Below are positions 1-40,452 of a stretch of DNA of 64,000 nucleotides, piece by piece. This DNA is from an uncultured Candidatus Saccharibacteria bacterium (GTDB lineage Bacteria; Patescibacteriota; Minisyncoccia; Phycocordibacterales; PALSA-1337), in contig CAZYBH010000003.1 in NCBI GenBank assembly GCA_964645315.1, positions 5,789-69,788 of the forward strand, given 5' to 3'. Both the position numbers and the translations under genes were made by a program. Every line of letters begins with the position of its first letter. Within the stretch, counting starts at the first letter, position 1. The notes beneath the pieces were generated by a model that searched no databases, had not been told where the DNA came from, and saw only the letters and a list, made by a program, of their open reading frames with translations.

Positions 1-525
1 ACCCAAGAACTTGCTGACCATCTCTGATTCTGGAAGTAAATCTTCATTTTTAAGATTTGTGTATAGTTTCTTCAATGCTTCTTCTACCTTTTTTGCTAGA
101 ACTTCATTTACATGCCAGCGATGACGGAATTCATCATCTTCTTTGAATTTTCGGAAAGGTTCACCGACTACTAGCAAGAAATAGATGTGATTTTGGAGAC
201 TAGGATCTTTTGAGACATGGCCTAGGAAATCATCTTCAACGACAATACCACCTAGAGAGTGAAGTAAAGTCTCAATCTCAGCAAATGCAGATTTCTCTTT
301 TGCATAATCATCTGACTTGCGAATATTGGTCAAAGCGTAGTTTTCGATTTGACGGACTCTTTCGCGAGTAATGCCGTAGATCTTTCCTATAGCATCAAGT
401 GTCATACGCTTTACATCCTTGCCAAGACCGTATCTGTATGTGATCACTTCGCGAGCACGATCAGGAAGAGAAGACAAAAGTCTCTTTACAGTCTGTTTTG
501 GTTTGAATGTAAGTGTTGTTGCCAT
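1..525 (-). CDS. sigma-70 region 4-like HTH domain protein (N-terminal ~175 aa; gene continues past window start)
   Basis: Minus-strand ATG at 525..523. Translation MATTLTFKPKQTVKRLLSSLPDRAREVITYRYGLGKDVKRMTLDAIGKIYGITRERVRQIENYALTNIRK... has the L..RE..V...RYGL / TL..IG...G.TRERVRQIE signature of sigma-70 region 4, here at the N-terminus. Absent from the ORF track because no stop falls in the window. Confidence 0.5.
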   Translation of the reverse strand, partial: MATTLTFKPKQTVKRLLSSLPDRAREVITYRYGLGKDVKRMTLDAIGKIYGITRERVRQIENYALTNIRKSDDYAKEKSAFAEIETLLHSLGGIVVEDDFLGHVSKDPSLQNHIYFLLVVGEPFRKFKEDDEFRHRWHVNEVLAKKVEEALKKLYTNLKNEDLLPESEMVSKFLG

Positions 526-638
526 GTTTTTATAATAGTATTAATGAATATGTTTTATCATTTTATCCAATTAAAGTCAACAAGCTTGCACAACTTGTAG
601 ATTTATGGTACAACGTAAATGGAAGGAACCTCAAGACC

Positions 639-1148
639 ATGAAAAAAGTGGAATGGGAAATCGGTTTTGTACTGCCGAAGCAAATCACCGGCACACCAAT
701 GTGGCTCGACACGAAACCGTTGCGGGACTTGGACATTTCGAGATCTGTCCGTCTGATCGGAACTCCCGAAAAACAATCTGGAGAATTTCTGAACTGGGCA
801 AAGGGGCAAGCAACGGATGGGACGATCTTCGCAGATATCAGGCACTTCCAGCGTCTTGCCGAGGTGCTCGAAGGCAAGTCTAGCCAGGTCGAAGGTCGAT
901 ACACTCACTTCGTCTTGGCTGGAATTGTCTTCGATACCACGGAGCAGATTCGGGTCGTGGAAAAAGTGACCGTCGCTGGCAAAACGACAGATCAGCCGAA
1001 GATGATCGACGTCAACATGCGGTCTGTTCCCGTGATGAATCTTTTCGTGATCAATAACAAGCCGGTCTGGGGCGTTGCCCTTTATCCGGCAAATCAATAC
1101 TACGGGCGACTTGGTGGTCATGACACCGCGCTCGTACTGATCGGATGA
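639..1148 (+). CDS. hypothetical protein (GC-rich, likely foreign)
   Basis: In-frame ATG at 639 inside track ORF 513..1148, preceded by ggaagg. The segment is about 50% GC, clearly above its neighbours. No recognisable motifs. Confidence 0.5.
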   Translation: MKKVEWEIGFVLPKQITGTPMWLDTKPLRDLDISRSVRLIGTPEKQSGEFLNWAKGQATDGTIFADIRHFQRLAEVLEGKSSQVEGRYTHFVLAGIVFDTTEQIRVVEKVTVAGKTTDQPKMIDVNMRSVPVMNLFVINNKPVWGVALYPANQYYGRLGGHDTALVLIG

Positions 1149-1173
1149 AGTTTCCACACTTCGTCCATTTCAC

Positions 1174-1204: not shown

Positions 1205-4200
1205 TTATGAAATAACAATATTGATCAATCTATTGGGTACAACGATAACTTTTGTAACCTTTTTGCCTTCCAACCACTTCTTGACAACCTCATTTTCCAT
1301 AGCGATTTTTTCGATAATAGATTTGTCTGCATTTGAAGGTGCTTCGAAACTTCCTCTCAACTTACCATTGATCTGAATTGTAATATTTACGATATCTTCT
1401 TGGACAAAATCTGGGTTATATTCTGGCCAAGGAGCGATATGAATTGACTTTTTATTTCCCAAATTCATCCACAATTCTTCAGTAAAATGAGGGGCAAAAG
1501 GAGCCAAAAGTTTGATCAAATTAGAAAAATTTTGTTTATCGATAATTCCGATTTTTTCTACTTCATTTACTGTAATCATAAGGGTACTGATTGCTGTATT
1601 GAATCGTAGTGATTTGATATCATCAGTCACCTTCTTGATTGCTTTGTGAATGTATTTTGATATTTCTTTTGTTTGATTTTGATCTAAGGTATTTGAAATT
1701 TTGTCATTCAATTTCCAGACTCTTTCTATGAATCTCCTTGTACCACTCAAGCCAGCAGTACTCCAAGCAATCTGTTGATCAAATGGACCCATAAACATTT
1801 CGTATAATCTCATCGAATCAGCACCATAGTTTTTGACTATATCATCAGGATTTACTACGTTGCCAAATCTCTTGGACATCTTCCTACCATCTTCACCCAT
1901 AATAAGACCGACGTGCTGAAGTTTGATAAATGGTTCGGTCGTCGAAACTACTCCGATGTCATACAAGAATTTGTGCCAGAAGCGGGCGTATATGAGATGG
2001 CGCGTTGCATGTTCTGCCCCACCAACATAGACATCGACTGGTGACCAATATTTTTCTTTTTTATTATCAACCAATGCTTTGGAATTTTTTGGATCCATGT
2101 AGCGCAAATAGTACCAAGATGAACCTGCCCACTGTGGCATAGTATTTGTCTCTCTCTTGGCTTTGCCTTTGCAAACTGGACACTTAACATTGACCCATTT
2201 GTCTATCGAAGCAAGAGGCGACTCACCAGTACCAGTAGGTTCGTAAGATTTGACTCGAGGTAATGTCACTGGCAAATCTTTGAAAGGTACGGGTACAATT
2301 CCGTTTGATTCTGGTCTTATCAATTTGCAATTTTCGCAATGAATAATTGGCATTGGCTCGCCCCAATATCGTTGACGCGAAAATACCCAATCACGAAGTT
2401 TGTATTTTGTAACCCACTTGCCACCAACAAAATCTGTAATTTCTTTTTTTATTTCTTCAGAATTTTTGCCGTTGAATTGACCTGAATCCATAACAATACC
2501 ATAACCGGTATATGCTATATCACCATTTAATCTCTGACGCCAATAAGGCATCTCCGAATGCGTCATAAAATCATCTGTAAGTGTTGAGAAAGATTCCCAA
2601 AATATTTCATGTTGGGCATTTTCTTCATCACTAACATTATCTTTTTCTTCATTTTCCAAATCAAAGGTAACCAACGATGTTAAAGCCAATCTATTTTGAT
2701 CTTTATGAGCTGCAAAATATTCTGCTCTGACTATACCGCCCAAAACTTTGCCATTTGAAAGATTTTTGTAGCCAGTCTCCTCTTGTACTTCTCTTTTGGC
2801 TGCTGTTATCAGATCTTCACCTTGTTCGACTCCTCCCATTGGGAAAGTTGTCCAAGGATGCTTTTTCCATTTCAAACAAAGAATCTTTCCATCTTTTGGA
2901 TTTCTTACAATGACATGAACATTTCTTCTTTCTACTTTTTGCTTACCAGCCACTGGAGGATTTCTTTTATCGACGATGTGTGGAGCGATGACTTGCTTTA
3001 TTGAAAGATTGTATTTTGTTGCAAACTCCCAATCTCTATCATCATGAGCGGGTACGGCCATGACTGCGCCTGTGCCATAATCTGGCAAGACATAATCAGC
3101 AATCCAAAGTGGCACAGCTTCATTGTTTGCTGGATTAATAACCTTGATACCTTTCAATTCAACACCCGTCTTTTCTTTTTTTACATCTGTCCTTTCAATT
3201 TCGCTAATATTTTTTACTTTCTTTATATATTCTTCAACTTCGTTTCTATTTTCTACAATACTCAAAAATTCAGAGACTAGTTTGTGCTCTGGAGCAAGGA
3301 CAACATAAGTAACCCCAAATAATGTATCCGGCCTTGTCGTAAATACTTCTATTTCTTTTTCACCTTTTACCTTTTCCCTATTACCTCCTTGCCCTCCGTA
3401 GCCTTGGCGAAGGAGGGTTACCTTAAATGTAATCAACGCTCCCTCACTCTTCCCAATCCAATTTTTCTGCAAAATCTTTATCGATTCTGGCCAATCAAGC
3501 AAATTACCGCCCTTTTCATTTTTCAAATCAAGATCAGATAAAAGTCTCTCGGCATAGTCAGTAATTTTCAAAACCCATTGACGCATAGGTTTCTTTTCGA
3601 CAACAGTACCACAACGCTCACAACGACCATCCTCAACATCTTCATTTGCCAAACCAGTCTTGCATGAAGGACACCAATTTATCGGCTCATATGATTCATA
3701 AGCCAAACCTTTTTCTAATAATTTCAAAAAGATCCACTGTGTCCATTTGTAATATTTTGGATCGGTGGTGTTGACCTCGCGCGACCAATCATAATCGAAG
3801 CCAAGTATTTCCAATTGCTTCTTGTATCTTGCAACATTCTTCTTGACCGAATCGGCCGGATTGGTCTTGGTCTTTAGTGCATAATTTTCTGCTGGTAGAC
3901 CGAAAGCGTCAAAGCCCATAGGATGTAGAACCGAGTGACCATTCATGCGCTTGAAACGAGAAATGACATCGGTGGCAATATAGCCTTTTGGATGACCAAC
4001 ATGCAAACCTTCACCGGATGGATATGGGAACATATCGAGAACATAAAATTTCTCTCTTTTACCAACTTCTTTTGATTGGTACAATTTGGTCTTTTGCCAT
4101 TTCTTCTGCCATTTGGATTCGATGGGGGCGGGGTTATAGGTTTTGAGCGTTATCTTTTTTGTACTTACTGATGCGCTTTTTCTTGGCTTTTGCCCTTTGC

Positions 4201-4240
4201 CTTTTACCTTTTTTAATGCCTTAGATTTTACTTTTTTCAT
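1205..4240 (-). CDS. leuS: leucyl-tRNA synthetase with Lys-rich N-terminal extension and an inserted Nudix hydrolase domain
   Basis: Class I aaRS motifs: PYPSGEGLHVGH (HIGH) and KMSKRFGNV (KMSKS). CP1 editing-domain signature GTGAVMAVPAHDDRDWEFA. Start chosen at MKKVKSK (4240) rather than the track's 4309. Nudix box GGVEQGEDLITAAKREVQEETGY inside a ~155-aa insertion at nt 2513..2980. Confidence 0.9.
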   Translation of the reverse strand: MKKVKSKALKKVKGKGQKPRKSASVSTKKITLKTYNPAPIESKWQKKWQKTKLYQSKEVGKREKFYVLDMFPYPSGEGLHVGHPKGYIATDVISRFKRMNGHSVLHPMGFDAFGLPAENYALKTKTNPADSVKKNVARYKKQLEILGFDYDWSREVNTTDPKYYKWTQWIFLKLLEKGLAYESYEPINWCPSCKTGLANEDVEDGRCERCGTVVEKKPMRQWVLKITDYAERLLSDLDLKNEKGGNLLDWPESIKILQKNWIGKSEGALITFKVTLLRQGYGGQGGNREKVKGEKEIEVFTTRPDTLFGVTYVVLAPEHKLVSEFLSIVENRNEVEEYIKKVKNISEIERTDVKKEKTGVELKGIKVINPANNEAVPLWIADYVLPDYGTGAVMAVPAHDDRDWEFATKYNLSIKQVIAPHIVDKRNPPVAGKQKVERRNVHVIVRNPKDGKILCLKWKKHPWTTFPMGGVEQGEDLITAAKREVQEETGYKNLSNGKVLGGIVRAEYFAAHKDQNRLALTSLVTFDLENEEKDNVSDEENAQHEIFWESFSTLTDDFMTHSEMPYWRQRLNGDIAYTGYGIVMDSGQFNGKNSEEIKKEITDFVGGKWVTKYKLRDWVFSRQRYWGEPMPIIHCENCKLIRPESNGIVPVPFKDLPVTLPRVKSYEPTGTGESPLASIDKWVNVKCPVCKGKAKRETNTMPQWAGSSWYYLRYMDPKNSKALVDNKKEKYWSPVDVYVGGAEHATRHLIYARFWHKFLYDIGVVSTTEPFIKLQHVGLIMGEDGRKMSKRFGNVVNPDDIVKNYGADSMRLYEMFMGPFDQQIAWSTAGLSGTRRFIERVWKLNDKISNTLDQNQTKEISKYIHKAIKKVTDDIKSLRFNTAISTLMITVNEVEKIGIIDKQNFSNLIKLLAPFAPHFTEELWMNLGNKKSIHIAPWPEYNPDFVQEDIVNITIQINGKLRGSFEAPSNADKSIIEKIAMENEVVKKWLEGKKVTKVIVVPNRLINIVIS

Positions 4241-4298
4241 AGAGCAATCATAGCGGAAAGTGGGTTTTGACGCAAAATTGTGCTGATTTAAAAGGGTA

Positions 4299-4327
4299 TT
4301 GACAATCATTATGTGGTATGCTATAAT
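4299..4327 (+). promoter_or_regulatory. consensus sigma70-type promoter (TTGACA-17 bp-TATAAT)
   Basis: ttgaca at 4299..4304, 17-bp spacer, tataat at 4322..4327. Faces away from leuS. Confidence 0.55.
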
Positions 4328-4333
4328 TGAAGT

Positions 4334-4563
4334 AGATGAATACCACCCAAATAACGACGTTCACGGGAACGCCCGAAGTCGCGGCCAGGAAGGCCGAGGA
4401 GTTGTTTGATGTCCAGAAGCTGGACATCAAACAGACTCTAGTCAATACGTCCACTACGTTGGTGGACGGGAAACTCATTCTGACCATCGTTGTAATCTGG
4501 ACCCGTCCGGTCTAGTAACAACGAACGCATCGCGTTCCCTCCGGGGGGCGCGATGATTTTTTT
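4334..4563 (+). ncRNA. candidate small structured RNA (family unassigned) or leaderless mRNA for a 59-aa ORF (4336..4515)
   Basis: Begins about 7 nt after the -10 box and ends in an intrinsic terminator. About 55% GC inside a roughly 35% GC genome. Contains a perfect 14-bp hairpin at 4403..4433 (tgtttgatgtccag-aag-ctggacatcaaaca) and further hairpins (cgttcacgggaacg, ggcc-aggaa-ggcc, gacggg...cccgtc). ORF 4336..4515 reads MNTTQITTFTGTPEVAARKAEELFDVQKLDIKQTLVNTSTTLVDGKLILTIVVIWTRPV, just under the track's size cutoff. Confidence 0.4.
4528..4563 (+). terminator. rho-independent terminator (catcgcg...cgcgatg stem followed by T7)
   Basis: GC-rich hairpin followed by a ttttttt run. Confidence 0.65.
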
Positions 4564-4580
4564 ACAAACATTTTATGGAA

Positions 4581-5165
4581 TCAGACAAACCACTTTTTCC
4601 TATGCTTATCTAAATAGGTCATAATATCTTCGAGAAAATATTGAGCAAAACTATTGTATTTGCTTGTCTTACTTCTTTTTCGATTATTAAAATCTTCAAA
4701 ACTAACTTTTCTCTTGAGCCAATGATCATCTTCAGATAGTAGTACAGTAAGAATAGGCTCAATTTTTTCTATTATATATACAAATATAGCCTCTTCATCT
4801 TGCCTCTTTTCGTAAATATCAATTTCTTTCCAAATATTAATTAAATCTGGATATCTACTTTTTAACTTTGCCAGAGATTTCAATTCTCTTTTATGTTTAT
4901 CAATCTTCTTATTTGAATATATGGAAACATCACCAGCATAAACTTCTACAAAGTCATGGATGAGTGAATACTTTATAACTTTATTTAAATCAAGTTTTAA
5001 ATTATATTTTTCAATAATCATCCAACAAAGCATAGCAACCCTATATGAATGTTCTGCATCATTGTCTCTAATCATAGAACTATGGATCGAATCGAGGTCT
5101 CTATATGTAGAATTAAAGCGCTTCAATAATTTCTGATAGGCGATAATATTTTTGAAATATTCCAT
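4581..5165 (-). CDS. HD-domain phosphohydrolase (YfbR-like 5'-deoxynucleotidase family)
   Basis: H...HSYRVA and LIHDFVEVYAGD, the HD motif. Confidence 0.7.
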   Translation of the reverse strand: MEYFKNIIAYQKLLKRFNSTYRDLDSIHSSMIRDNDAEHSYRVAMLCWMIIEKYNLKLDLNKVIKYSLIHDFVEVYAGDVSIYSNKKIDKHKRELKSLAKLKSRYPDLINIWKEIDIYEKRQDEEAIFVYIIEKIEPILTVLLSEDDHWLKRKVSFEDFNNRKRSKTSKYNSFAQYFLEDIMTYLDKHRKKWFV

Positions 5166-5587: not shown

Positions 5588-6784
5588 CTAAACCTTAAAC
5601 TCAATAACATCACCATCTTTGACGACATACTCCTTACCTTCAATGCGAAGTAGACCTTTTTCGCGAGCAGAGGCATACGATCCTGAAGCGAGCAATTTGT
5701 CCCATTCAATAACTTCTGCACGAATAAATTTGTCTTTGAAATCTGTGTGAATAGCTGTACCCGCAAGAGGTGCTGTCCAACCTCGCTTGATGGTCCAGGC
5801 TCTAGTCTCATCTTCCCCAGTAGTAAAATAGACAATTAGATTCAACAAATCATAGCCAGTTCGAATAAGATTATTTATACCATCCCCCTTCGCCAAGGCT
5901 TCGGGGGACAGGTCCTCCTTCGCCAAGGCTTCGGGGGACAGGTCCTCTTTCGCTGAAACGAGTTCAGACGAGGCTGGAGAGATCGTTTCTCCAACCAAGG
6001 CTTTTCTCATTTCTTCTTTTTCCTCATGATCGAAATCTTTCAATTCATTTTCGATACCAGCATCAACGACTACCCATTTGGAATTATTATTTTGAAAAAA
6101 ACTAATCAAAGCCTTATAGCGCTCATCATTCAATTCATCCAAATTTTTGCCACCACTTTTTTTATTCAAAACATAAAGAATTGGCTTTGATGTTATCAAA
6201 CATAATTGTTTCAAATATGGTTCTTCAAATTCATCTACTTTGACCGTAGAAGCCAGTTTACCAGATTCGAGTATAGGAATAATTTTGTCCAATAGACCCA
6301 TTTCCAAAATCGCTTCCTTTCTACCTGATTTGAAGTCTTTTGAAAGATTACTCTTTCTCTTTGTCACGGTAGCGAGGTCTGCCATTATCAATTCAAGATT
6401 GATAACTTCTATATCCTTGAGTGGATTGATCTTGCCGTCGACATGGATGATATTGTCATCCTCGAAAATCCTTACTACTTCTGCAATAGCATCGGTCTCT
6501 CTAATGTTTGATAAAAATTGATTGCCCAGACCCTCTCCTTCTGATGCGCCTTTGACCAAGCCAGCAATATCGACAAATTCGATAGCGGCAGGAATTGTCT
6601 TTGCAGATTTTGAAAAATGAGATAATTTCCAAAGTCGCTCATCAGGAACAGCAACAACTCCGACAGATGGATCGATAGTAGCAAATGGATAATTTGCAAT
6701 AAGAACGCTCTTTTTTGTAAGCGCGCTAAAAAGGGTTGATTTTCCCACATTTGGCAGACCGACTATTCCGATTGATAGAGACAT
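5588..6784 (-). CDS. ychF: ribosome-binding ATPase YchF (Obg-like GTPase family)
   Basis: GIVGLPNVGKSTLF (G1 motif). C-terminal TGS-like region AWTIKRGWTAPLAGTAIHTDFKDKFIRAEVI. Start taken at MSLSIGIVG (6784). Confidence 0.9.
   Translation of the reverse strand: MSLSIGIVGLPNVGKSTLFSALTKKSVLIANYPFATIDPSVGVVAVPDERLWKLSHFSKSAKTIPAAIEFVDIAGLVKGASEGEGLGNQFLSNIRETDAIAEVVRIFEDDNIIHVDGKINPLKDIEVINLELIMADLATVTKRKSNLSKDFKSGRKEAILEMGLLDKIIPILESGKLASTVKVDEFEEPYLKQLCLITSKPILYVLNKKSGGKNLDELNDERYKALISFFQNNNSKWVVVDAGIENELKDFDHEEKEEMRKALVGETISPASSELVSAKEDLSPEALAKEDLSPEALAKGDGINNLIRTGYDLLNLIVYFTTGEDETRAWTIKRGWTAPLAGTAIHTDFKDKFIRAEVIEWDKLLASGSYASAREKGLLRIEGKEYVVKDGDVIEFKV
5889..5953. repeat. 30-bp in-frame tandem repeat x2.1 inside ychF (encodes AKEDLSPEAL repeats)
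   Basis: The unit cttcgccaaggcttcgggggacaggtcctc occurs twice in a row at 5889..5948, followed by a partial third copy. Confidence 0.8.
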
Positions 6785-6843
6785 AATTTTTATCCACAAT
6801 TAACTTGACATATTAATAATATTCGTTACAATTAAATTAATCA

Positions 6844-7458
6844 CTACGAGGAAGACCCTGATGCAGTTCCGTCTGCATTGGGGGCTTTTTCTTTTACATT
6901 CCTCTCATGTAACTCAAGGTTTGATTTTTGATCATCCAGATATGCAATCGGAGCACCAGTTCTTTTTAATAATATTGAGCATCTCTTTGGATTACTTGGA
7001 GACAAAATTGCCTTCAGCTTCCCACCGGCTAATAATACCTTTATCAGTGGTGCATAATCTCCATCACTTGCGACTATAACGGCTTTTTCTAAGAAACCTA
7101 AATAAAAATCGCTACTGGCTTTCATTAGTAAATCTGAATCACAATTACCCTTTGGTTTACCATCTGCGTAAACAACATCCTTAAAGATCAACTCAAAACC
7201 ACATTCTTGTATATAAGAATATAAATCCTTGTACTTTGGGATCAGGCCAATAAAAATATAAGCTATTTTTACATCATATTTCTCAGATAACCAGATCCTG
7301 AACTTCCGATAATCTAAACGCCAATTTAAATGATTTCTGAGAGCTTTATCAAGATTTGTAGCATCAATATAAGCAATATTGACCGGATGCTCTTTTTGCA
7401 ACTTATTTTGAAACAAAGACATGAAATGAGCATAACACAAAGCGGTGCTACTTGTCAT
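6844..7458 (-). CDS. NYN-domain (LabA/PIN-like) protein
   Basis: AYIDATNL ... CDSDL ... VASDGDYAPL acidic residues of the NYN fold. The start could be 7458 or the ATG at 7422. Confidence 0.65.
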   Translation of the reverse strand: MTSSTALCYAHFMSLFQNKLQKEHPVNIAYIDATNLDKALRNHLNWRLDYRKFRIWLSEKYDVKIAYIFIGLIPKYKDLYSYIQECGFELIFKDVVYADGKPKGNCDSDLLMKASSDFYLGFLEKAVIVASDGDYAPLIKVLLAGGKLKAILSPSNPKRCSILLKRTGAPIAYLDDQKSNLELHERNVKEKAPNADGTASGSSS

Positions 7459-7485
7459 AGCACCGCTCGAACCTCTCCAGATTCA

Positions 7486-7839
7486 CTACCGTCGAGCAGA
7501 CCGAACAGGACGAACACCCCGAGGGTCACAGAGAAAGACCTGTCCCGGACCCAGACCCGTATGTGTGGCTCGAGGAGCCGGAAGCTCCTCAGGGTTGGCT
7601 TTAAACCCGAGCTGGCTTCGTCCGTTTTTGCGGTCTCTGGCTGAACCATGAGTTCTCTTCAAAACCCACTCAGGAATTTTCCCATTGTTTTGCCGGTGAC
7701 GATGCAATGCAGACTTCGACGGAATGATTTTGTATCCATTCGCCATAGCTTTCCTTTCTACTAAGAGTTGCTCTACCGAATTCTGTCCGATAACATCATA
7801 CCACAAATAATCGATGAATTCAAACAATTCTTCCATCAC
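7486..7839 (-). CDS. hypothetical protein with a GC-rich C-terminal tail of uncertain reality
   Basis: Its ATG overlaps the zwf stop (atga at 7836..7839), suggesting translational coupling. The N-terminal 60 aa look protein-like. The C-terminal half lies in the anomalous GC-rich segment 7441..7660. Confidence 0.35.
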   Translation of the reverse strand: MMEELFEFIDYLWYDVIGQNSVEQLLVERKAMANGYKIIPSKSALHRHRQNNGKIPEWVLKRTHGSARDRKNGRSQLGFKANPEELPAPRATHTGLGPGQVFLCDPRGVRPVRSARR

Positions 7840-37619: not shown

Positions 37620-37668
37620 TAAATAAATATGTTACATTTTCTCATGTTAGTTCATTAAAAGAAAATAT

Positions 37669-37994
37669 TCCGGAGTAGCTCAGCGGTAGAGCAGTCGCCT
37701 GTGGAGTTCGCAGCTTCCACAAGAAATTGTGGATGACAAACGAGGTGAATTCGGGGAAACCCCAAATGTAAATAAGGGCAATCCCGAGCCAATCCCATCT
37801 TTGTGATGGGCAGGTGTAGAGACTATCCTTTCCAGGAGTAGTGCGAAGTGAAATATCTTCAAACGAAGCGCCTCGTCCCTAAATTATCAAGTTGGAAACT
37901 CGATAACATGGGAATGATATAGTCCGTCCCTATTAGTAATAGTAGGATAAGCGTAAGCGATTGGTCACAGGTTCGAATCCTGTCTCCGGAGCCC
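37669..37994 (+). tRNA. tRNA-Asn (GUU) interrupted by a group I intron; exons 37669..37702 and 37954..37994
   Basis: Exons splice to UCCGGAGUAGCUCAGCGGUAGAGCAGUCGCCUGU|UAAGCGAUUGGUCACAGGUUCGAAUCCUGUCUCCGGAGCC. U1-A72, G73 and anticodon loop CUGUUAA match bacterial tRNA-Asn (compare B. subtilis tRNA-Asn). Anticodon stem is GUCGC/GCGAU. Confidence 0.8.
37703..37953 (+). ncRNA. group I intron (~251 nt) in the tRNA-Asn anticodon loop, between anticodon positions 35 and 36
   Basis: Conserved core elements: P-like AAUUCGGGGAAA, Q-like AAUCCCGAGCC, R-like GGUGUAGAGACUAUCC, S-like AUGAUAUAGUCC (P7 GACUA/UAGUC). P9 hairpin with GUAA tetraloop. The 5' exon ends in U, which pairs with G37710 in a short P1. 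The intron ends in G (37953). Confidence 0.7.
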
Positions 37995-39614
37995 TAGTGA
38001 CGAAACCTCACATTTTGTGGGGTTTTGTCTTTTATTGCTTGATATTTTAGAGGTTCGAGCGCGCTCTAATTCTTCTTCGACCGCCTGACGACTTTTGATG
38101 ATCGTTTTAATGAAAGAATGGTAATTTACAAAGACCTTTTTGCCTTTTAGGGTGAGGTTCGAGCCAAGGCATGCGAGTATCGCTCTTTTGGCTTTATCAT
38201 CTCCTTTTTCAAACCAAATGTGGGCGTAGCAAGCGAAGTCAAAGGTCTGCTCGGTGAGTTCCACCCACTCCAATACCTCTCTGTTTTTCGTCTTCAATTC
38301 TTCTTCGAGTGCCAGTTTCTTTTTTACTATTCCAACCTTGAGCGTTTGGTATTCTTCATCAGTAATTATCGCTCGCTCACTGTTTGCTGGCGAGGTGAAG
38401 TTGAGTGTCAGTGACTGCAAATTCTTGGTGACTTCCTCAAGCTCTTTGTGCTTGCCTTTGAGGACCACAGAATCGCTGTCAACTTCTGTTTTTCGCAGTT
38501 CATGGAGGTGCTTGATTGCCCAGTCTTTGAATCTTTCCGAAATGGTGATCTCACTGAGCTTTTGTTTTATATCAAGTTCCAAGTTCTTAAGCTCTATCAC
38601 TTTCTCCGGACACTTCACGTCTACTTTTTTCTTGGTGCAATTGTAGTAAACGTAGTGGTGAACATTGCCGTTCTTACATCGCTTTACTTTCGCCTGTGCA
38701 GTGATACTACAGCCACACGTGCCGCATTTCATAAGCGAGGTGAAGGCAAAGCTGCGCTCTGGCCGAGGTCGTGGTTGCATGGTTCTTCCCATGATCTGTT
38801 GGACCTTATTGAATTCTTCTTCGGTTATCATGGCTTCATGTGCGCCTTTGTGCCATTCTCCGCTTTTGTAGGGATATTCAAACCAGCCGTAATAAAAGGG
38901 GTTGCTTAGGAGTGCATAGATGCCGCTTTTAGAAAGATGCTTGCCACCCATATTTCTTCGTTGATACGTTTTCAAATTCAACTCCTTACGAGCCACATCC
39001 CATATTTGAATTGTGCTGTAGTTACCGGTAAGCATGAGGTCAAAGAGTCTCTTTACCACAGGAAAACGTTCAGGGTCCTTCATGATGGTCTTGAATCCTT
39101 TTTCTCGGTCTGGTGTGCTCATATATCCCACAGGACACATGCTTGGTAGCCAGCCTTCTCGGACCTTCTTTGCAAGACCTCGCTTTACGTTTACTGATAA
39201 GTCTCTGATGTACTGGTTGGCCATGCCAAGCTCAACTTGCATCATGAGGACATTGTCCGTTGGGTAGTATGTTCGGCCGAATGTCACAATCTGTGCGATT
39301 GCACTTTGCTGTAGCATCCAGCTTATTTGTCCACCGTCCACAGGGTTGCGTGCAAGGCGGTCCAGTTTCCAACAGATGATTCCATTCGCTTCGCCTTTGT
39401 AAATTCTCTCAAGCATTTTGTTGAATACTGGTCTTCCTGGTTTCTTGGCCGATTGTGATTCGGTAAGGACCTCAACTATCGCCAAGCCTTGCTCTTCTGC
39501 AATCTTCAAGAGTTCATCTTTCTGAGCATCGATTGATGCCGCTTGTCTGTCTTCCGCCTCGCTTGATTTACGAGCGTAGAGGAAGTATTTGATTGTAGGT
39601 GTTTTATTATTCAT
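37965..39614 (-). CDS. large serine recombinase (resolvase/invertase-type catalytic domain + recombinase domain + zinc-ribbon)
   Basis: IKYFLYARKSSEAEDRQ...SIDAQ (catalytic Ser) and LDRLARN motifs. C-terminal Cys-rich region. The 3' end overlaps the last ~30 nt of the tRNA-Asn gene. Start taken at MNNKTPTIKY (39614). Confidence 0.85.
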   Translation of the reverse strand: MNNKTPTIKYFLYARKSSEAEDRQAASIDAQKDELLKIAEEQGLAIVEVLTESQSAKKPGRPVFNKMLERIYKGEANGIICWKLDRLARNPVDGGQISWMLQQSAIAQIVTFGRTYYPTDNVLMMQVELGMANQYIRDLSVNVKRGLAKKVREGWLPSMCPVGYMSTPDREKGFKTIMKDPERFPVVKRLFDLMLTGNYSTIQIWDVARKELNLKTYQRRNMGGKHLSKSGIYALLSNPFYYGWFEYPYKSGEWHKGAHEAMITEEEFNKVQQIMGRTMQPRPRPERSFAFTSLMKCGTCGCSITAQAKVKRCKNGNVHHYVYYNCTKKKVDVKCPEKVIELKNLELDIKQKLSEITISERFKDWAIKHLHELRKTEVDSDSVVLKGKHKELEEVTKNLQSLTLNFTSPANSERAIITDEEYQTLKVGIVKKKLALEEELKTKNREVLEWVELTEQTFDFACYAHIWFEKGDDKAKRAILACLGSNLTLKGKKVFVNYHSFIKTIIKSRQAVEEELERARTSKISSNKRQNPTKCEVSSLGLRRQDSNL

Positions 39615-40452
39615 ATGCGCTTTTAATGTTATCTTCCGACCGTTTTTCACCGTTTTTAAATGGTGGTTTTTGCTCTATGGCAGTTACATTATCGTCACTG
39701 CGTGGTTCCCGTAATTTTCCCGTTATTTCGGGAAAGGTCGTCTCACCGGGCTGACGAACGACAGTATCCCCAGAAGGGTCTCGAATAGCAACTGATTCCT
39801 GACTTCTTGGCATCTGCCATTTCTGCATTGTTCCCCTTAACACATCTCCAATGTGAGTTACAGAATTAGGAGAGTTTTTTCTTAGGTTAGTTAGAGTTTC
39901 ATTATCATCACTGCGATATGGTCGCTTATTGTAACTGCGAGGGCGTTGTTTTTGTAACTGCGGTGGTGCCTCGGATATCTTTATTTTTCGATTCCAGTTA
40001 GGGACCGGCAACCATAGCTCGCTCGCATGGAAAGTGTAGAGATTTACCATGTTGAACATACCATCAGCTCTCGTAACGCCGATAATGCCGTAGCCTTCGA
40101 GGATGCGAATTGCCTTAATGATGCTACTTCTGTTTTTACTGCCGACGAGTTCCTGAATGGTAGTGATACTTGGAAACGCCGCCTGGCTTTCGGTGTTGCA
40201 GTGGACCAAAAGCGCCATATATACTGACGTACATAACTTTGAGAGTGTTGCAAGATATCCGCCTTGCACATATTCGTTATCAACGAAGAACCTGCTCGAC
40301 TTATTCTTTTTGCGAAGTTTGGACCGATCTATCTTGTCATGCAGTCTGTTGAGGTAGGCTTTCTTTTGATTGTGGTTGAGGTCCTTTCTTGTTTTTGATT
40401 TGTCTCTTAGTATCCACTCGATCAATTCCTTGTCGTTTTCCATATTCTTCAA
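39607..40452 (-). CDS. hypothetical protein with central HTH-like segment (possible replication/regulatory protein)
   Basis: FPSITTIQELVGSKNRSSIIKAIRILEGYGII resembles a winged-helix/HTH. The N-terminal region overlaps the 40337..40600 ORF in another frame. Confidence 0.45.
   Translation of the reverse strand: MKNMENDKELIEWILRDKSKTRKDLNHNQKKAYLNRLHDKIDRSKLRKKNKSSRFFVDNEYVQGGYLATLSKLCTSVYMALLVHCNTESQAAFPSITTIQELVGSKNRSSIIKAIRILEGYGIIGVTRADGMFNMVNLYTFHASELWLPVPNWNRKIKISEAPPQLQKQRPRSYNKRPYRSDDNETLTNLRKNSPNSVTHIGDVLRGTMQKWQMPRSQESVAIRDPSGDTVVRQPGETTFPEITGKLREPRSDDNVTAIEQKPPFKNGEKRSEDNIKSAYE

Follow-up and report, generated by a model that had tools for sequence, protein, structure and literature searches.

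Few enzymes have been studied as thoroughly as the aminoacyl-tRNA synthetases, and domains appended to them usually signal added functions. Here, we describe a leucyl-tRNA synthetase (LeuRS) gene, leuS, found in a 64-kb stretch of DNA from an uncultured Candidatus Saccharibacteria bacterium (contig CAZYBH010000003.1 of GCA_964645315.1, positions 5,789 to 69,788; this whole stretch is called the window below). The gene encodes, in frame with the synthetase, a Nudix hydrolase domain that interrupts the CP1 editing domain of the enzyme. A preliminary description of the sequence had reported a complete Nudix module, with all the catalytic residues of the Nudix box, breaking into LeuRS at 2513-2980, and had placed it in the linker that joins CP1 to the catalytic core. 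The module itself is borne out by the analysis below; its placement has to be corrected.

A Nudix domain nested in the editing domain of LeuRS

The Pfam NUDIX profile (PF00293) matches residues 438-554 of the leuS product with 54.9 bits (E 1.2e-14), above its gathering score of 21.1, and the segment 2513-2980, when excised and searched alone, scores 59.5 bits. The Nudix box, which has the canonical pattern, is the only one in the window according to a six-frame scan with a regular expression. In an alignment of 54 orthologues with a mean column identity of 57%, Gly469, Gly470, Arg483, Glu484, Glu487, Glu488 and Gly490 of the box are invariant and Glu475 is nearly so, and 54 of 59 genome loci, like 301 of 338 domains of the family, have the strict box. 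An AlphaFold model of the domain, with a predicted local distance difference test (pLDDT) score of 94.8, has the alpha/beta/alpha sandwich of the Nudix fold. The residue at position +17 from the box is Tyr or Phe in 308 of the 338 family domains, and the X-loop in which it lies has an invariant Lys and a nearly invariant Asn among 28 diverse family members. An HK..NR motif in the X-loop and an N-terminal (D)KRNPP lead-in are conserved traits specific to this family. Because the catalytic residues are invariant, we infer that the module would be an active Mg2+-dependent hydrolase working beside LeuRS and taking no part in aminoacylation or editing.

Where does this domain sit? CP1 itself interrupts the Rossmann fold as an inserted domain. 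The profile of the editing domain (PF13603), which scores 205-210 bits on CP1 of the window LeuRS, matches residues 259-424 but stops at position 146 of its 185. An in-silico deletion of residues 421-575 gives a single match, which extends over profile positions 1-183 of 185 with 209.6 bits. In the alignment with LeuRS from Thermus thermophilus (1h3n), the gap corresponding to the Nudix domain falls between chain residues 363 and 376, within the editing domain of that enzyme, which we take to be residues 224-417. Since the deletion restores an end-to-end match to PF13603 and the gap falls within the T. thermophilus editing domain, the Nudix domain is nested in a surface loop of CP1, beginning 18 residues past the AHDDRD motif, and not in the linker from CP1 to the core. 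The coordinates of these and other features of leuS are summarized in Table 1.

Neither a recent foreign insertion, nor an intein, an intron or an assembly chimera is an acceptable explanation for this segment: the reading frame is continuous, the composition of the insert is not anomalous (GC fraction 0.368 against 0.382), no meaningful direct or inverted repeats flank the insert, and the same junctions are seen in more than 200 independent assemblies.

Table 1. Features of the leuS gene and its product in the window.
Feature	Residues	Coordinates	Strand	Basis or remark
leuS coding sequence	1-1011	1205..4240	minus	1011 aa plus stop; open reading frame, TIGR00396, 1h3n alignment
Lys-rich N-terminal tail, MKKVKSKALKKVKGKGQKPRKSASVSTKKITLKT	1-34	4139..4240	minus	translation
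HIGH signature (HVGH), synthetic site	80-83	3992..4003	minus	translation; invariant in 54-sequence alignment
CP1 editing domain, N-terminal three quarters	247-420	2981..3502	minus	PF13603 profile positions 1-146/185
Gly-rich disordered CP1 loop (site C), LRQGYGGQGGNREKVKGEKE	~275-297	3353..3412	minus	pLDDT <50 at residues 280-292
TTRPDT (Thr-rich CP1 motif)		3323-3340	minus	invariant or nearly so in 54 sequences
AHDDRD (CP1 editing-site Asp motif)		3032-3049	minus	invariant or nearly so in 54 sequences
Nudix hydrolase domain (156 aa; site A)	421-576	2513..2980	minus	nested in CP1
Nudix box, GGVEQGEDLITAAKREVQEETGY	469-491	2768-2836	minus	canonical GX5EX7REUXEEXGU
X-loop (specificity) motif YFAAHKDQNR		2690..2719	minus	Tyr508 exactly +17 from box; Lys513, Asn516, Arg517 conserved
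CP1 editing domain, C-terminal quarter	577-612	2405..2512	minus	in-silico deletion construct, PF13603 profile positions 1-183/185
Catalytic core, second half	613-850	1691..2404	minus	alignment to 1h3n
KMSK	787-790	1871-1882	minus	conserved; invariant or nearly so in 54 orthologues
Anticodon-binding and C-terminal tRNA-binding domains	851-1011	1208..1690	minus	PF08264 at 858-975; aligned to 1h3n up to residue 876

The host enzyme

The gene lies in an uninterrupted open reading frame (ORF) at 1205..4309 of the minus strand, and a start at 4240 (MKKVKSK) gives the product of 1011 residues. Which start codon is used is uncertain, as the same ORF continues upstream for 23 more codons to an alternative ATG at 4309, and this upstream ATG was taken by the gene caller in a near-identical assembly (GCA_964587205.1). 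The product scores 999.7 bits against TIGR00396, the NCBIfam equivalog model of bacterial LeuRS (cut-off 548.4), and matches T. thermophilus LeuRS with an E-value of 1.6e-208. Like the enzymes of T. thermophilus (1H3N, 2BYT) and Escherichia coli (4AQ7), it has the HIGH and KMSKS signatures, Zn-binding Cys motifs, the CP1 motifs and the anticodon-binding and C-terminal domains. The host is the housekeeping bacterial-type LeuRS of a member of Patescibacteria (the candidate phyla radiation, CPR); its HIGH, KMSKS and CP1 editing motifs are intact, and otherwise it looks fully functional.

Besides the Nudix domain, two features set it apart from the T. thermophilus enzyme: a Lys-rich tail at the N-terminus and, in CP1, an additional Gly-rich loop that is disordered. 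Conversely, the leucine-specific domain, which the T. thermophilus (residues ~580-637) and E. coli enzymes have, is absent ahead of KMSKS (region ~1871-1900, residues ~780-790) according to the alignment to 1h3n, in which the chain proceeds from residue 579 to 638 while the window protein advances only from 782 to 788, leaving 580-637 unmatched. This domain is typical of many bacterial LeuRSs, not universal, and given the equivalog score its absence leaves membership of the LeuRS family unaffected. The Lys-rich extension noticed in the preliminary description is indeed present in the ORF, but the idea that it forms an extra, conserved tRNA-binding arm is not supported: it is of low complexity and predicted to be disordered (pLDDT 34-38), its sequence is not conserved, and most relatives lack it, while in others it is as long as 67 residues. 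It is at most a non-specific basic tail.

Distribution and conservation

The question of whether related LeuRSs carry the insertion, which the preliminary description had raised, can be answered positively. PF00293 is present in 118 of the 120 best LeuRS homologues that the full protein matches in a collection of 5.8 billion proteins, all from metagenome-assembled genomes of Patescibacteria. When each prokaryotic species was represented by one genome and scanned with the single protein as query, 179 stretches were seen to encode relatives of the query; among the 80 loci that were kept, 59 span the insert wholly or for the most part, at 30-67% identity, and the remaining 21 match only the LeuRS flank and are mostly from Gammaproteobacteria. 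The 59 insert-bearing loci are mostly labelled Patescibacteria or Parcubacteria (Kaiser-, Taylor-, Zambryski-, Giovannoni-, Nomura-, Morani- and Magasanikbacteria, Paceibacterota). A few are labelled Gammaproteobacteria, Woesearchaeota or Fimivivens, labels that we take to be unreliable. On these comparisons, the LeuRS-Nudix architecture is spread across the Patescibacteria clade, is highly plastic, and is shared by hundreds of related uncultured bacteria, not particular to one genome. The identity in all-pairs comparisons is 0.46-0.48 for the Nudix domain, 0.47 for the anticodon-binding and C-terminal region and 0.49 for the C-terminal part of CP1. Given this equality, the Nudix module is under ordinary purifying selection and changes at about the pace of the anticodon-binding domain.

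How far does the family extend beyond LeuRS? An exhaustive HMMER search with the insert against 1.84 billion representatives gave 468 proteins with E <= 1e-3, of which 160 have E <= 1e-10; a word-index search with the insert alone retrieved four fragments only. The best 150 representatives of the family are mostly LeuRSs or LeuRS fragments, in which the Nudix domain occupies one or another of four sites, termed A to D and defined below. About 25-30 of them are stand-alone proteins of 156-199 residues that start with Met and have no LeuRS flanks. A few, such as P0096 (379 aa) and P0094 (467 aa), have no synthetase part and consist of Nudix domains repeated in tandem, twice or three times, or of two Nudix domains joined by a linker region.

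Among the same 150, one protein (P0119, 643 aa) is a class II prolyl-tRNA synthetase (ProRS) with the Nudix domain between its anticodon-binding and C-terminal domains. A word-index search with this ProRS-embedded Nudix gave no match, but a later metagenome scan gave one further ProRS-Nudix (L082, 1171-3096, plus strand), 66% identical to the first over the Nudix domain and its flanks. The boxes of the two are partly degenerate, in that Lys or Asn takes the place of Arg and the loop is shorter by one residue. Because the second copy was recovered from a different metagenome, the ProRS-Nudix fusion is genuine, if rare. No isoleucyl-tRNA synthetase (IleRS), valyl-tRNA synthetase (ValRS) or other large host occurs among the best 150 representatives, and the window contains no further synthetase or Nudix genes. 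As far as these searches reach, the Nudix family is specific to Patescibacteria, where its members have been inserted, duplicated, relocated and swapped among no fewer than four LeuRS loops.

Insertion sites and exchange of modules

Nudix copies were mapped onto LeuRS coordinates in 210 near-full-length proteins, a sample biased toward relatives of the window protein. Site A is the CP1 site of the window LeuRS; site B follows residue ~238, just ahead of the N-terminal CP1 linker; site C is the loop at ~275-297; and site D, at ~640-700, belongs to the second half of the core. A single LeuRS has from zero to three copies, and at least four distinct sites are used among the proteins. Site A alone is occupied in 143 of the 210 proteins, A and B in 27, A and two copies at B in 16, two copies at B in seven and B alone in seven; the combinations A + C (three), A + D (two), A + C + C (one), A + A (one) and D only (one) are rarer, the mapped coordinate lies just beyond the site-A range in one, and one protein, P0184, is free of Nudix. 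The last is 71-76% identical to the window protein. In another relative, P0180 (75-89% identical), which with its 765 residues is truncated at the N-terminus and stands outside the tally, the Nudix core, residues 431-548, has been lost.

The modules do not follow their hosts faithfully. The Nudix type of the window, taken as a cluster at a threshold of at least ~45% identity with 119 members, is found 97 times at site A, 18 times at B, twice at C and once in a stand-alone protein. Apart from the two nearest relatives, LeuRS backbones that are 72-84% identical to that of the window mostly carry site-A modules only 31-43% identical to its module, whereas backbones of 63-70% identity mostly carry modules of 55-71% identity, and the Spearman correlation between backbone and module identity is -0.55. 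Such discordance implies that paralogous modules have been replaced, relocated or differentially lost; the pattern points to a cassette-like exchange of Nudix modules among LeuRSs.

Other domains also use these loops. A Ser_hydrolase (alpha/beta hydrolase, PF06821) is embedded in orthologous LeuRSs at site C (~280-297) and at site D (~640-650), HAD domains (PF13419/PF00702) are embedded in some, a Ham1/ITPase domain (PF01725, 196 bits) lies near residue ~850 in L053, and L030 has a distinct second type of Nudix at site C. Orthologues with extra embedded domains include, in our numbering, L010, L022, L023, L030, L043, L045, L052, L053 and L054 as well as P0157, P0164, P0165, P0169, P0265 and others, and some reach at least 1500 residues. 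Three of the families concerned, Nudix, Ham1 and HAD, are classic for house-cleaning. A conserved site-D insert of ~130 residues ('IW..I..G.KT.ETRA...NGLVGWE'; residues 765-905 in L030 and 650-790 in L053) has no significant match in Pfam; by eye it resembles an ASCH domain. In the window protein, site C is the disordered Gly-rich loop, and a 36-nt (12-codon) indel within this loop (3357-3420, residues ~274-295) is the sole gap in the alignment of the window with contig CAZPKQ010000001.1 of GCA_964587205.1, to which its DNA is 99.8% identical. This position is occupied by a Nudix or an alpha/beta-hydrolase domain in orthologues, and the loop may be an insertion scar or a hot spot.

Gene neighborhood and other features of the window

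Directly upstream of leuS, at 4581-5165 of the minus strand, is a gene for a YfbR-like HD-domain 5′-deoxynucleotidase (HD_3, 94.7 bits), an enzyme of nucleotide house-cleaning, itself preceded by the genes for YchF and a NYN-domain protein. The 271-bp gap between this gene and leuS contains, within a locally GC-richer stretch (4350-4560), a hairpin with a perfect 13-bp stem at ~4404-4432 of the minus strand (gtttgatgtccag-ctt-ctggacatcaaac). This hairpin might terminate transcription of the upstream HD gene or act as a leader element; at the gathering threshold it has no match in Rfam. The YchF GTPase gene (5588-6799) has a tandem duplication of 30 nt at 5883-5953 (minus strand), as a result of which KEDLSPEALA is encoded twice within a YchF insertion. 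Islands of ~50% GC occur at 600-1200 and 7350-7800 in a genome of ~37% GC; two overlapping ORFs in the first, 513-1148 (plus) and 603-1157 (minus), have no Pfam match, and the near-identical assembly has there only a gene for a hypothetical protein of 92 residues.

Elsewhere in the window, a group I intron (Rfam, 73 bits) is located at 37623-37946 of the plus strand, where ARAGORN, with introns allowed, predicts a tRNA-Thr(CGU) at 37668-37994 (plus) with a 251-nt intron after position 33. Because a large serine recombinase gene (37965-39650, minus) directly adjoins it, the intron-bearing tRNA is suggested to serve as an integration site. From ~40900 to 62400 extends a dense cluster of defence or restriction type, encoding a HerA/DUF87 helicase, a ResIII/SNF2 helicase, an N6/N4 DNA methylase and a Type ISP restriction-modification enzyme of 1026 residues.

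Possible functions of the embedded hydrolase

What would a hydrolase do within a synthetase? Aminoacyl-tRNA synthetases form dinucleoside polyphosphates when ATP or another nucleotide attacks the enzyme-bound aminoacyl-adenylate, and they are an established source of such Ap3-5N compounds (PMC7705103). In the mechanism that we tentatively prefer, at rather less than an even chance, the Nudix domain would act on adenine dinucleoside polyphosphates, namely diadenosine tetraphosphate (Ap4A), diadenosine triphosphate (Ap3A), Ap4N and their relatives. A hydrolase tethered to the producer would remove these by-products, or alarmones, at their point of origin, and tethering would also couple the amount of hydrolase to that of synthetase in very small genomes. 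We prefer an Ap4A-type activity because several hints from the sequence, although weak, are concordant, because synthetases make Ap3-5N, and because the family is embedded almost exclusively in synthetases. As to the hints, the best sequence match of the insert in the PDB is the Ap4A hydrolase of Aquifex (3i7u, E 1.1e-4), and that of a profile built from 28 family members is the Ap4A hydrolase of lupin (1f3y, 36.8 bits), with the next classes at ~34. A Tyr or Phe 17 residues past the box, which stacks on adenine, is reported to be common to Nudix Ap4A hydrolases (PMC2425470), and specificity in Nudix enzymes is governed by the X-loop (PMC5389931). The likeness to the lupin, Aquifex and human (NUDT2) Ap4A hydrolases consists of a canonical box, the aromatic residue at +17 and a single domain of ~130-160 residues. 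They differ in that those enzymes are free-standing, whereas the present family is embedded in a synthetase, is only ~20-25% identical to them with matches mainly over the box, and has its own HK..NR X-loop and (D)KRNPP lead-in.

Several points weigh against this proposal. Ap4A hydrolases lead the other Nudix classes by only ~3 bits. By fold, the MutT/Nudix protein 2azw, RppH, NudI, NUDT15 and ADP-ribose pyrophosphatases rank equally well, with the Ap4A hydrolases behind 2azw, RppH and others, and the fold does not assign a subfamily; the Enterococcus faecalis protein 2AZW (14% identity), a stand-alone Firmicute MutT/Nudix protein, is uncharacterised, its entry stating no function, and is of no help in assigning one. 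The aromatic residue at +17 is not exclusive to Ap4A hydrolases, and no NCBIfam equivalog model of a Nudix enzyme reaches its cut-off with the insert. To our knowledge, LeuRS is not among the strongest producers of Ap4A. The module is dispensable for LeuRS itself, because one close relative (P0184) has lost it entirely and another (P0180) has lost its core. The embedded Ser_hydrolase, HAD and Ham1/ITPase domains fit a generic permissive scaffold at least equally well, and up to three paralogous Nudix domains in one LeuRS look more like a battery of differing specificities. The assignment of Ap4A as the substrate is weak; the suggestion of the preliminary description that Ap4A or a related nucleotide is hydrolyzed is still a reasonable guess in view of the 3i7u and 1f3y matches and the +17 aromatic, albeit with that narrow lead.

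The most serious alternative, which we regard as possible though on the unlikely side, is that the module is an autonomous pyrophosphatase of the MutT, NUDT15 or NudI type that sanitises damaged or non-canonical (d)NTPs or acts on other metabolites, unrelated to leucylation, and that it merely hitch-hikes in an essential, constitutively expressed gene whose surface loops in CP1, ZN and CP2 tolerate insertions. The existence of stand-alone homologues of 160-190 residues, the Ham1/ITPase, HAD and Ser_hydrolase domains embedded at the same loops in orthologous LeuRSs, the occurrence of up to three paralogous Nudix types per LeuRS and the great plasticity of copy number and position, including relatives free of Nudix, all suit such a house-cleaning passenger, as do the NTP-sanitising NUDT15 and NUDX1 among the best Foldseek matches and the YfbR-like nucleotidase gene directly upstream of leuS. 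However, a permissive scaffold leaves unexplained why hosting is nearly exclusive to LeuRS, with ProRS, while the homologous IleRS and ValRS and other large proteins go without. The MutT and NudI models score far under their cut-offs (for MutT, 15.4 bits against 97.9 with TIGR00586 and 15.1 against 148 with NF008044), and the +17 aromatic and the HK..NR X-loop are common to all paralogue types, which argues for a common substrate class and not for a diverse battery. More generally, membership of the RppH, MutT, NudE, NudB and NADH pyrophosphatase families was rejected, since all NCBIfam scores fall far under the cut-offs.

Less probable, and in our judgement unlikely, is an RNA-end-directed enzyme, that is, an RppH/NudH-like pyrophosphohydrolase or decapper (of PPi, NAD or Np4A caps) which uses the synthetase as a tRNA platform and acts, for example, on 5′-triphosphorylated or capped tRNA(Leu), or on other RNAs, near the acceptor end. 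The RppH models NF001934-NF001938 are the best NCBIfam matches of the insert, RppH, the mRNA-decapping AvrM14 and Dcp2 rank high in sequence and profile searches, LeuRS and ProRS both bind tRNA, and CP1 touches the acceptor arm. Nevertheless, the RppH models score only 21-28 bits against cut-offs of 116-259 and match the box region only, the insert being 15-17% identical to E. coli RppH (NudH). Mature tRNA normally has a 5′ monophosphate, and because insertion sites range from A to D, with a further one behind the anticodon-binding domain in ProRS, the module keeps no constant position with respect to the 5′ end of the tRNA.

A role intrinsic to LeuRS, as a ligand sensor or structural domain modulating CP1 movement or in the proofreading of aminoacyl-adenylate, is very improbable: nesting in the mobile CP1 ~18 residues past the editing-site Asp motif, the presence of the non-catalytic Nudix sensors NrtR and AraR among the fold matches and the Arg to Lys or Asn changes in the ProRS-embedded boxes might suit it, but the catalytic box residues are invariant in the LeuRS copies, which argues for catalysis, and the same module also occurs outside CP1 and in stand-alone proteins. 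Proofreading in particular, which the preliminary description had entertained, is unsupported, because the bond in an aminoacyl-adenylate is an acyl-phosphate and not the pyrophosphate that Nudix enzymes cleave, and because P0184, which lacks the module, and P0180, which lacks the Nudix core, keep an otherwise normal LeuRS.

Relation to known fusions

Full-text searches of the literature yielded no account of a synthetase, LeuRS or other, with a Nudix domain, in line with the earlier impression that the fusion is undescribed. A survey of the Nudix clan in 2017 never mentions tRNA synthetases or ligases (PMC5389931), a survey of CPR synthetases does not mention LeuRS-Nudix, and in a survey of domain insertions in 2026 the LeuRS editing domain is reported never to be a host (PMC13114784), a claim that the Nudix domain in CP1 contradicts. 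A scan of NCBIfam matched no model of LeuRS with Nudix. The nearest parallel is NF040702, an IleRS with an N-acetyltransferase domain, which likewise joins a class Ia synthetase to a small-molecule enzyme domain; since a dedicated model exists, fusions of a synthetase with a catalytic domain are a recognised kind. NF040702 differs in adding GNAT and not Nudix, the window protein scores only 72.7 bits against its cut-off of 1999, and the Nudix domain here is nested in an already inserted domain and mobile among sites. The LeuRS-Nudix architecture is already visible, unremarked, in the precomputed Pfam annotations of public proteins, which bear such plain names as 'leucine--tRNA ligase' or 'class I tRNA ligase family protein'.

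Significance

The observation itself is well supported: an architecture, undescribed in the literature searched, in which a catalytic Nudix domain within CP1 has been kept over a large bacterial radiation, in one to three copies and with cassette-like exchange. It means that annotations as 'leucine--tRNA ligase' in Patescibacteria conceal a second enzyme, and it marks permissive insertion loops in LeuRS that may be useful in protein engineering. Should the Nudix domain be only a passenger, it would represent an unusual route of genome streamlining, in which essential synthetase genes carry housekeeping hydrolases. If, as we tentatively prefer, the module degrades Ap4A-type products, the synthesis and the breakdown of an alarmone would be physically coupled, giving a handle on the physiology of ultra-small uncultured bacteria. 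A bolder version, to which we would give perhaps a small chance, is that Patescibacteria possess dedicated Nudix cassettes functionally coupled to synthetases, mainly LeuRS and occasionally ProRS, which are copied, moved and swapped so that the producer carries its own hydrolase of Ap4A and possibly of Np4A caps. If true, this would be a built-in module of synthesis and degradation linking the status of translation to nucleotide signalling, a principle that the Ham1, HAD and alpha/beta-hydrolase inserts would extend.

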